Source of the DNA: Escherichia coli
GTDB lineage: Bacteria; Pseudomonadota; Gammaproteobacteria; Enterobacterales; Enterobacteriaceae
DNA: 64,000 nt
Assembly: GCF_003991155.1 (NCBI RefSeq)
Contig: NZ_CP031293.1
Reading direction: 5' to 3' (one strand)
Positions within the stretch are counted from its first letter, which is position 1, and each line of letters starts with the position of its first letter. The translations under genes were made by a program, and so were the position numbers. Positions 11,897 through 11,917 of this stretch are shown here, one piece after another. The notes below the pieces were generated by a model. The model saw nothing but the letters and a program-made list of their open reading frames with translations, was not told where the DNA came from and did not search any database.

Positions 11897-11902
11897 TTGC
11901 AG
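11897..11902 (+). promoter_or_regulatory. -35 hexamer (TTGCAG) of junction promoter, right end of IS
   Basis: Outward-facing TTGCAG 13 nt from the right terminus; completes a sigma70 promoter only on end-to-end joining. Confidence 0.5.
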
Positions 11903-11917
11903 GCCATAACAGTATCT

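Follow-up and report, generated by a model that had tools for sequence, protein, structure and literature searches.

One of the questions raised by this locus is how an insertion sequence whose right end (RE) carries an outward-facing -35-like hexamer, and whose left end (LE) carries a -10-like hexamer, comes to express its genes when the two hexamers lie at opposite ends of the element. The preliminary description of the window (the whole 64,000-nucleotide stretch of Escherichia coli DNA that was analyzed) claimed that these hexamers are the two halves of one sigma-70 promoter, which is put together when the ends are joined through a CT core and which points into a non-coding RNA (ncRNA) and a recombinase gene. 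Our analysis leads to the same reading, which we hold with high confidence: the element is a copy of IS621 whose RE -35 and LE -10 unite on circularization into a sigma-70 promoter with a 17-bp spacer, and this promoter is dismantled by integration.

The element in positions 10639-11915 is an intact IS621, a bridge-RNA recombinase element of the IS110 family with a CT on either side. In a nucleotide search its 1277 nt were 100% identical to RefSeq copies annotated as 'IS110-like element IS621 family transposase'. Related copies were found in 2244 of 5426 complete E. coli genomes, at a median of 5 places per genome; 51 records match the element at 99% identity or above and 1880 at 95-99%, and compared with most E. 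coli copies the one in the window is a sequence variant, about 2% diverged. It is inserted between nhoA (9748-10593, + strand) and yddE (11968-12861, - strand), within REP sequence. A synthetic empty site of 402 nt, made of the left flank, one CT and the right flank, was matched at 402 of 402 positions in the nhoA-yddE interval of E. coli strain GF131. As this site holds a single CT, the ends of IS621 are fixed to the base, and the shared CT is the only part of the target that is present twice. Several features that define IS110/IS621 elements were found here, namely a core dinucleotide CT that is single in the empty site, a REP target, and the lack of terminal inverted repeats or target duplication. 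The target, ATCAGGC-CT-AC, fits the pattern of other IS621 copies. Across the loci the left target flank is more variable, with many left flanks resembling REP-like GC-rich palindromes that end in CC-CT, and the right flank always begins with AC. The coordinates of all features are collected in Table 1.

Table 1. Features of the IS621 copy and of its flanks, with positions in the window.
Feature	Position	Strand	Basis
Promoter-like site TTGATA-18-AATAGT, 3' end of nhoA, into LE	10565..10594	+	Consensus match only
REP hairpin downstream of nhoA	10603..10637	-	Partial Rfam match to REP-derived naRNA4, 31 bits, below gathering threshold
ATCAGGC, left part of the IS621 target, end of the REP hairpin	10630-10636		Joined directly to the right flank in the empty site
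CT core dinucleotide, left copy	10637..10638	+	Direct reading; empty site with one CT
Left end (LE), 192 bp non-coding, encodes the bridge RNA	10639..10830	+	Empty-site boundary; 100% identical to annotated IS621
-10 half, TATTAT, 5/6 to TATAAT	10641..10646	+	Script; TATTAT in 28/38 and TATTGT in 6/38 relatives
Bridge RNA, ~177 nt	10654..10830	+	Predicted start 7-8 nt after the -10; fits the published length
IS621 recombinase gene, 326 aa, intact	10831..11811	+	ORF; PDB 8WT6, NF033542 and Pfam matches
Right end (RE), 104 bp non-coding	11812..11915	+	Empty-site boundary
G+C-rich hairpin in RE, ACAGCGCCGTCAGGCGCTGT	11834..11853	.	Terminator-like scan, minus strand
-35 half, TTGCAG, 3/6 to TTGACA (TTG kept)	11897..11902	+	Script; TTG in 36/38 distinct relatives
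Last 13 nt of RE, GCCATAACAGTAT; most of the spacer, containing the left donor ACAGTAT	11903..11915	+	Script, comparison
CT core dinucleotide, right copy	11916..11917	+	Direct reading, script, empty site
Right target part (ACATT...) and second REP-like palindrome before yddE	11918..11960	.	Sequence reading, empty site

The recombinase of this copy is identical in 323 of 326 residues to the 'IS621 transposase' of PDB 8WT6. It scores 252 bits against NCBIfam NF033542 ('IS110 family RNA-guided transposase', cutoff 140) and matches PF01548 over residues 8-152 (E = 1.7e-24) and PF02371 over residues 196-280 (E = 5.1e-26). Inactivation of the enzyme by the three amino acid differences was considered and rejected; each of them falls where the family varies, and the serine of the catalytic region is unchanged. 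Ser241 is invariant across 47 relatives. Upstream of the gene, counting 177 nt back from the recombinase start codon leads to position 10654, and the region so delimited has a three-stem fold (z = -4.1) with loops that carry ATCGGGCCT (the left target and core, with one mismatch) and ACAGTATCA (the left donor). Such guide segments are what one would expect in the IS621 bridge RNA that PMC11208160 describes. A scan of positions 9500-13000 against Rfam 15, with E up to 1, gave no bridge-RNA match, and its sole match was a sub-threshold naRNA4 in the flank.

By direct reading and by script, the positions given earlier for TTGCAG, TATTAT and the CT core, and the 17 bp between the hexamers at the junction, are exact. 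TTGCAG lies 13 nt from the RE terminus and TATTAT lies 2 nt inside LE, which starts with TG at 10639; the rebuilt RE-CT-LE junction reads TTGCAG-GCCATAACAGTATCTTG-TATTAT with a spacer of 17 bp, and integration places 1251 bp between the two halves. To call this a 'near-consensus' promoter, as was done at first, is an overstatement, as the -35 matches the consensus at only 3/6 positions and a rule of at least 4/6 per hexamer did not call a promoter on the synthetic junction. Because the -35 fails this standard rule, a weighted score and shuffles were used instead, the weights being rough ones taken from textbook hexamer frequencies. The junction scores 9.3 bits. When the ends were shuffled, a split site as good as this one arose in 0.4% of cases, and when 60-mers from the window were joined at random, in 1.0%; sites that score as well occur about 0.36 times per kb on one strand of the window. 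On the single sequence the junction signal is above chance but not decisive, and it is the conservation in relatives that makes it decisive. An extended -10 was considered and rejected, since the TG directly abuts the hexamer (TTG-TATTAT) and is not in the TGn register. Just upstream of TTGCAG there is an A-tract in positions 11890-11895.

According to the mechanism that we propose, the recombinase would excise IS621 as a circle, in which RE, CT and LE abut and the junction would read ...ACAGTAT-CT-TGTATTAT... The abutted halves, with 17 bp between -35 and -10, would then form a sigma-70 junction promoter ('Pjunc'), and RNA polymerase with sigma-70 would start 7-8 nt past the -10, at about 10653-10654. 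The transcript would cover the bridge RNA of ~177 nt and continue into the recombinase gene. Upon integration the G+C-rich REP would take the place of the -35 half, so that the promoter would be dismantled and expression would fall. We infer that natural circles are expressed mainly from the junction promoter and that there is next to no expression from the integrated copy. The RE also holds a hairpin with an 8-bp stem (Table 1) between the recombinase stop codon and the -35 half, and in the circle its position would be just upstream of the junction promoter.

In order to compare the halves among relatives, a recombinase scan with one genome per species was used, which gave 78 loci of 34-84% protein identity from Enterobacteriaceae, other Gammaproteobacteria, Betaproteobacteria and a few others; a plasmid collection searched for distant relatives returned few and was of little use for comparing the ends. 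Several of the relative loci are short, repeat-collapsed contigs that end just beyond the element ends (on the right with ...CT-AC), which exposes these ends. The ends were located by the donor motif, AACAGTATCT on the right and CTTGTATT on the left, in 45 loci, which represent 38 distinct junctions (L003-L066 and the window) at 45-100% protein identity. TTG is found at -19 to -17, relative to the core, in 36 of the 38, and the spacer is 17 bp in all. From -19 onwards the columns hold T (100%), T (95%), G (97%), A (74%) and C (66%) and are then unconserved, which is how the sequence profile of a -35 element usually falls off. The hexamers themselves are TTGACN in 25 junctions, TTGCNN in 8, TTGATN in 3 and degenerate in 2. 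Between this element and the donor block, positions -14 to -11 are variable (0.2-1.0 bits). The -10 is TATTAT in 28 junctions and TATTGT in 6, i.e., one of the two in 34/38; its last two positions hold A (79%) and T (97%), and at the next base the conservation drops to ~0.2 bits.

Not all of this conservation counts equally. The donor block ATAACAGTAT-CT-TGTATT is almost invariant where both ends were located, over 45-100% protein identity, and part of this same block served to find the ends, so that its invariance is partly ascertainment. The first four bases of the -10 overlap the right donor and the locating motif, and therefore their invariance is not independent evidence; the independent evidence is confined to the -35 columns and the last two -10 columns. 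The -35 columns have to be read together with the end of the recombinase gene. In most of the distant relatives the TGA stop of the recombinase lies inside the -35 TTGAC, the stop is 15 nt from the core and the RE is only ~15-19 bp long; this arrangement was seen in L018, L025, L040, L043, L047 and ~20 other loci (compare positions 11809-11902 of the window). Since the TGA stop falls within TTGAC, a coding constraint could account for part of the TTGAC conservation. The TTG nevertheless persists where it is non-coding, as in the IS621 group, in which the stop codon is ~100-114 nt from the core, and also where the ORF reads through it, as in a third group in which the ORF passes the -35 and stops at the TAA inside ATAACAG, 6 nt from the core.

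Can these hexamers be explained without a promoter? The explanation that a TTG-type and a TATAAT-like hexamer stand 17 bp apart by chance draws on the 3/6 match of the -35, on the silence of the consensus rule and on the ~0.36 such sites per kb and strand. For a single junction it already has a P of only 0.004-0.01, and 36 of the 38 distinct junctions, which reach down to 45% protein identity, show the same split geometry. Judged from these alignments, the chance explanation is effectively refuted by conservation, and we give it next to no weight. Only slightly more credible, and still very improbable, is that the hexamers are conserved for recombination, as parts of a donor site bound by the bridge RNA or the recombinase, and that the likeness to a promoter is incidental. 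The near invariance of ATAACAGTAT-CT-TGTATT would fit such a role, as this block holds the donor segments that are complementary to the bridge RNA (ACAGTATCA in the RNA), and the -10 overlaps it. The -35, however, lies 14-19 nt from the core and is separated from the donor block by the variable positions -14 to -11, and its strong TTG followed by decay has the profile of a -35 element. The last two bases of the -10, which are outside the locating motif, are also conserved, as A and T, and the conservation goes no further than these bases. In addition, published RNA-seq places the start of the transcript at the junction promoter, according to the text of PMC11208160.

Another question is what happens in the integrated copy, for which it had been claimed that expression would be coupled to excision. 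The flank hexamer that takes the -35 position has a mean score of -4.3 bits, compared with +5.7 bits at the junction, and reaches the score of the junction hexamer in only 1 of 31 loci; in the window its sequence is CGTAAA, which scores -4.5 bits. Inside the integrated IS, the weighted scan found no + strand site of at least 7 bits and the promoter scan called none. In silico, the promoter is absent in the integrated state. Expression may well be coupled to excision, but the coupling cannot be strict, because the recombinase and the bridge RNA are needed before the first circle can form. Read-through from nhoA, or the promoter-like site TTGATA-18-AATAGT, could be the basal source for the integrated copy. 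One can go further and propose that the junction promoter exists but merely boosts an expression that is already meaningful, with the integrated copy transcribed from outside by either of these two routes; we regard this as possible, at clearly less than even weight. LE is 46 bp downstream of nhoA, which ends at 10593 on the same strand, and there is no T-tract terminator between them. At 9.4 bits the promoter-like site, which overlaps the last nhoA codons, scores no lower than the junction promoter, and an early supply of both products is a logical necessity for which the ISPpu9/ISPpu10 paper, in its text, proposes a weak native promoter (PMC12288879). On the other hand, the REP hairpin between nhoA and LE may stop or destabilize read-through, and a consensus match such as this site is no more frequent than chance would have it, with 1 promoter-like site found in the region and 1.6 expected.

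If the halves do unite in a circle, one may ask whether a natural junction can be found. In 5426 complete E. coli genomes there was no contiguous match to a 302-nt synthetic junction, and neither the metagenome contigs nor the viral contigs yielded a genuine RE-CT-LE junction, as would be expected for a transient circle. The pattern TTG-N6-ATAACAGTATCTTGTATT occurs three times in the metagenome contigs and once in the viral contigs; these occurrences are A+T-rich, have no bridge-RNA sequence downstream and were judged to be chance. Two further kinds of match were rejected as junctions. Full-length matches come from a tandem IS621 pair split by a REP spacer (L002, positions 1066-3418; E. coli SCZE5, prpB-prpC), in which two full IS621 copies point the same way with 93 bp of REP-containing sequence between them, and each copy occupies a ...CAGGC-CT-AC... 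type site of its own; such pairs mimic the junction in similarity searches. Matches over 62% of the junction come from an internally deleted mini-IS621 (L001, positions 2501-2692; E. coli NWU_4, NZ_CP123008, yaaX-ybiU; also in NZ_CP123009). This 192-bp miniature consists of the first ~73 bp of LE fused to the last ~117 bp of RE and is CT-flanked in a REP site. Both promoter halves and both termini are preserved in it, but the recombinase gene is missing and the bridge RNA is cut down to its first part; it may be a MITE-like, non-autonomous derivative, or else what a deletion has left behind.

Circles of DDE-family insertion sequences (IS911/IS3, IS30, and IS21) have the -35 in one end and the -10 in the other, and the two are joined at the junction of the circle or of a tandem copy. 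The junction promoter then gives a burst of transposase expression that is ended by integration, which is the same logic as in IS621. The chemistry of the DDE systems is unrelated; their elements carry inverted repeats, a spacer keeps the abutted ends apart, and no guide RNA takes part. Unlike in DDE circles, the junction promoter of IS621 also drives the bridge RNA that selects the target.

For IS621 itself, the junction promoter is described in the text of Durrant et al. (2024; Nature 630:984; PMC11208160). There, small-RNA-seq from a plasmid with the IS621 RE-LE gave a ~177-nt transcript 'starting from the predicted endogenous sigma70-like promoter'. Together with the TTG kept in 36 of 38 junctions and the lack of a -35 in the integrated flank, this transcript backs the claim of the preliminary description that a split promoter is joined at RE-CT-LE and points into the ncRNA and the recombinase gene. 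As far as that text goes, excision-coupled expression is something that Durrant et al., too, infer; they cite earlier work on IS492 and IS1384, their 22-bp truncation removed the bridge-RNA gene along with the -35, and a reporter comparison of the IS621 junction with LE alone is not described in it (PMC11208160). The element in the window agrees with the IS621 of Durrant et al. in its CT core and donor sequence and in having its -35 in RE and its -10 in LE, and there is no essential difference between them, the three amino acid differences (323/326 identical) being at family-variable positions. The junction promoter of IS621 is real and was correctly interpreted from the window; it was already published in 2024, and nothing new is added here on IS621 itself.

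Similar promoters were found in other members of the family. In the text of a 2025 NAR paper, RE supplies the -35 and LE the -10 in several IS110/IS1111 elements, and lacZ fusions showed a strong hybrid promoter in ISPpu10 circles, far above the native promoter, and no junction promoter in ISPpu9 (PMC12288879). The case of ISPpu9 means that Pjunc is common, and not universal, in the IS110 family. As far as these sources describe them, the Pjunc of ISPpu10, IS492 and ISEc11 (the latter two as cited) is like that of IS621 in having the -35 in RE, the -10 in LE and a promoter only in the circle; these elements differ from IS621 in their core dinucleotides and end sequences. Natural promoters are not addressed in the 2025 CazIS110 preprint.

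The comparison of the junctions also raises the question of how the IS621 form of the promoter arose. The weak TTGCNN -35 is, in most cases, preceded by an A-tract (the window, L003, L005, L006, L010, L012, and L030), and the 8 nt upstream of the -35 hold a mean of 4.5 A in TTGCNN junctions compared with 1.2 in all 28 TTGACN/TTGATN junctions. Going by this base composition, the A-tract may be a UP-like compensation for the weak -35. We tentatively suggest, at a little under even confidence, that the junction promoter is ancestral to a wide proteobacterial IS621-like clade, in which the -35 (TTGAC) was built around the TGA stop and RE was ~15-19 bp long, and that enterobacterial IS621 acquired an RE insert of ~90-100 bp with a hairpin, a -35 weakened to TTGCNN and an A-tract that is maybe UP-like. 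Such a pattern was not found in the text of PMC11208160 or PMC12288879, whose figures and supplements may hold it.

What is added by this work is small: a table of 38 junctions with their constant spacing of 17 bp, the finding that the -35 overlaps the stop codon in most relatives, and the combination in IS621 of a weak -35, an A-tract and an RE insert of ~100 nt. The preliminary description recovered a real and experimentally supported regulatory device from raw sequence alone. IS621 is the present basis of programmable 'bridge recombinase' genome editing, and the 38-junction table could guide the choice and tuning of natural cis-expression cassettes. For the element, a junction promoter of this kind would confine strong expression of the bridge RNA and the recombinase to the short-lived circle, so that the integrated IS621 is kept quiet and the circle is equipped to reinsert. 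If the reading of an ancestral TTGAC is true, it would suggest that the strength of the circle promoter was retuned in E. coli.
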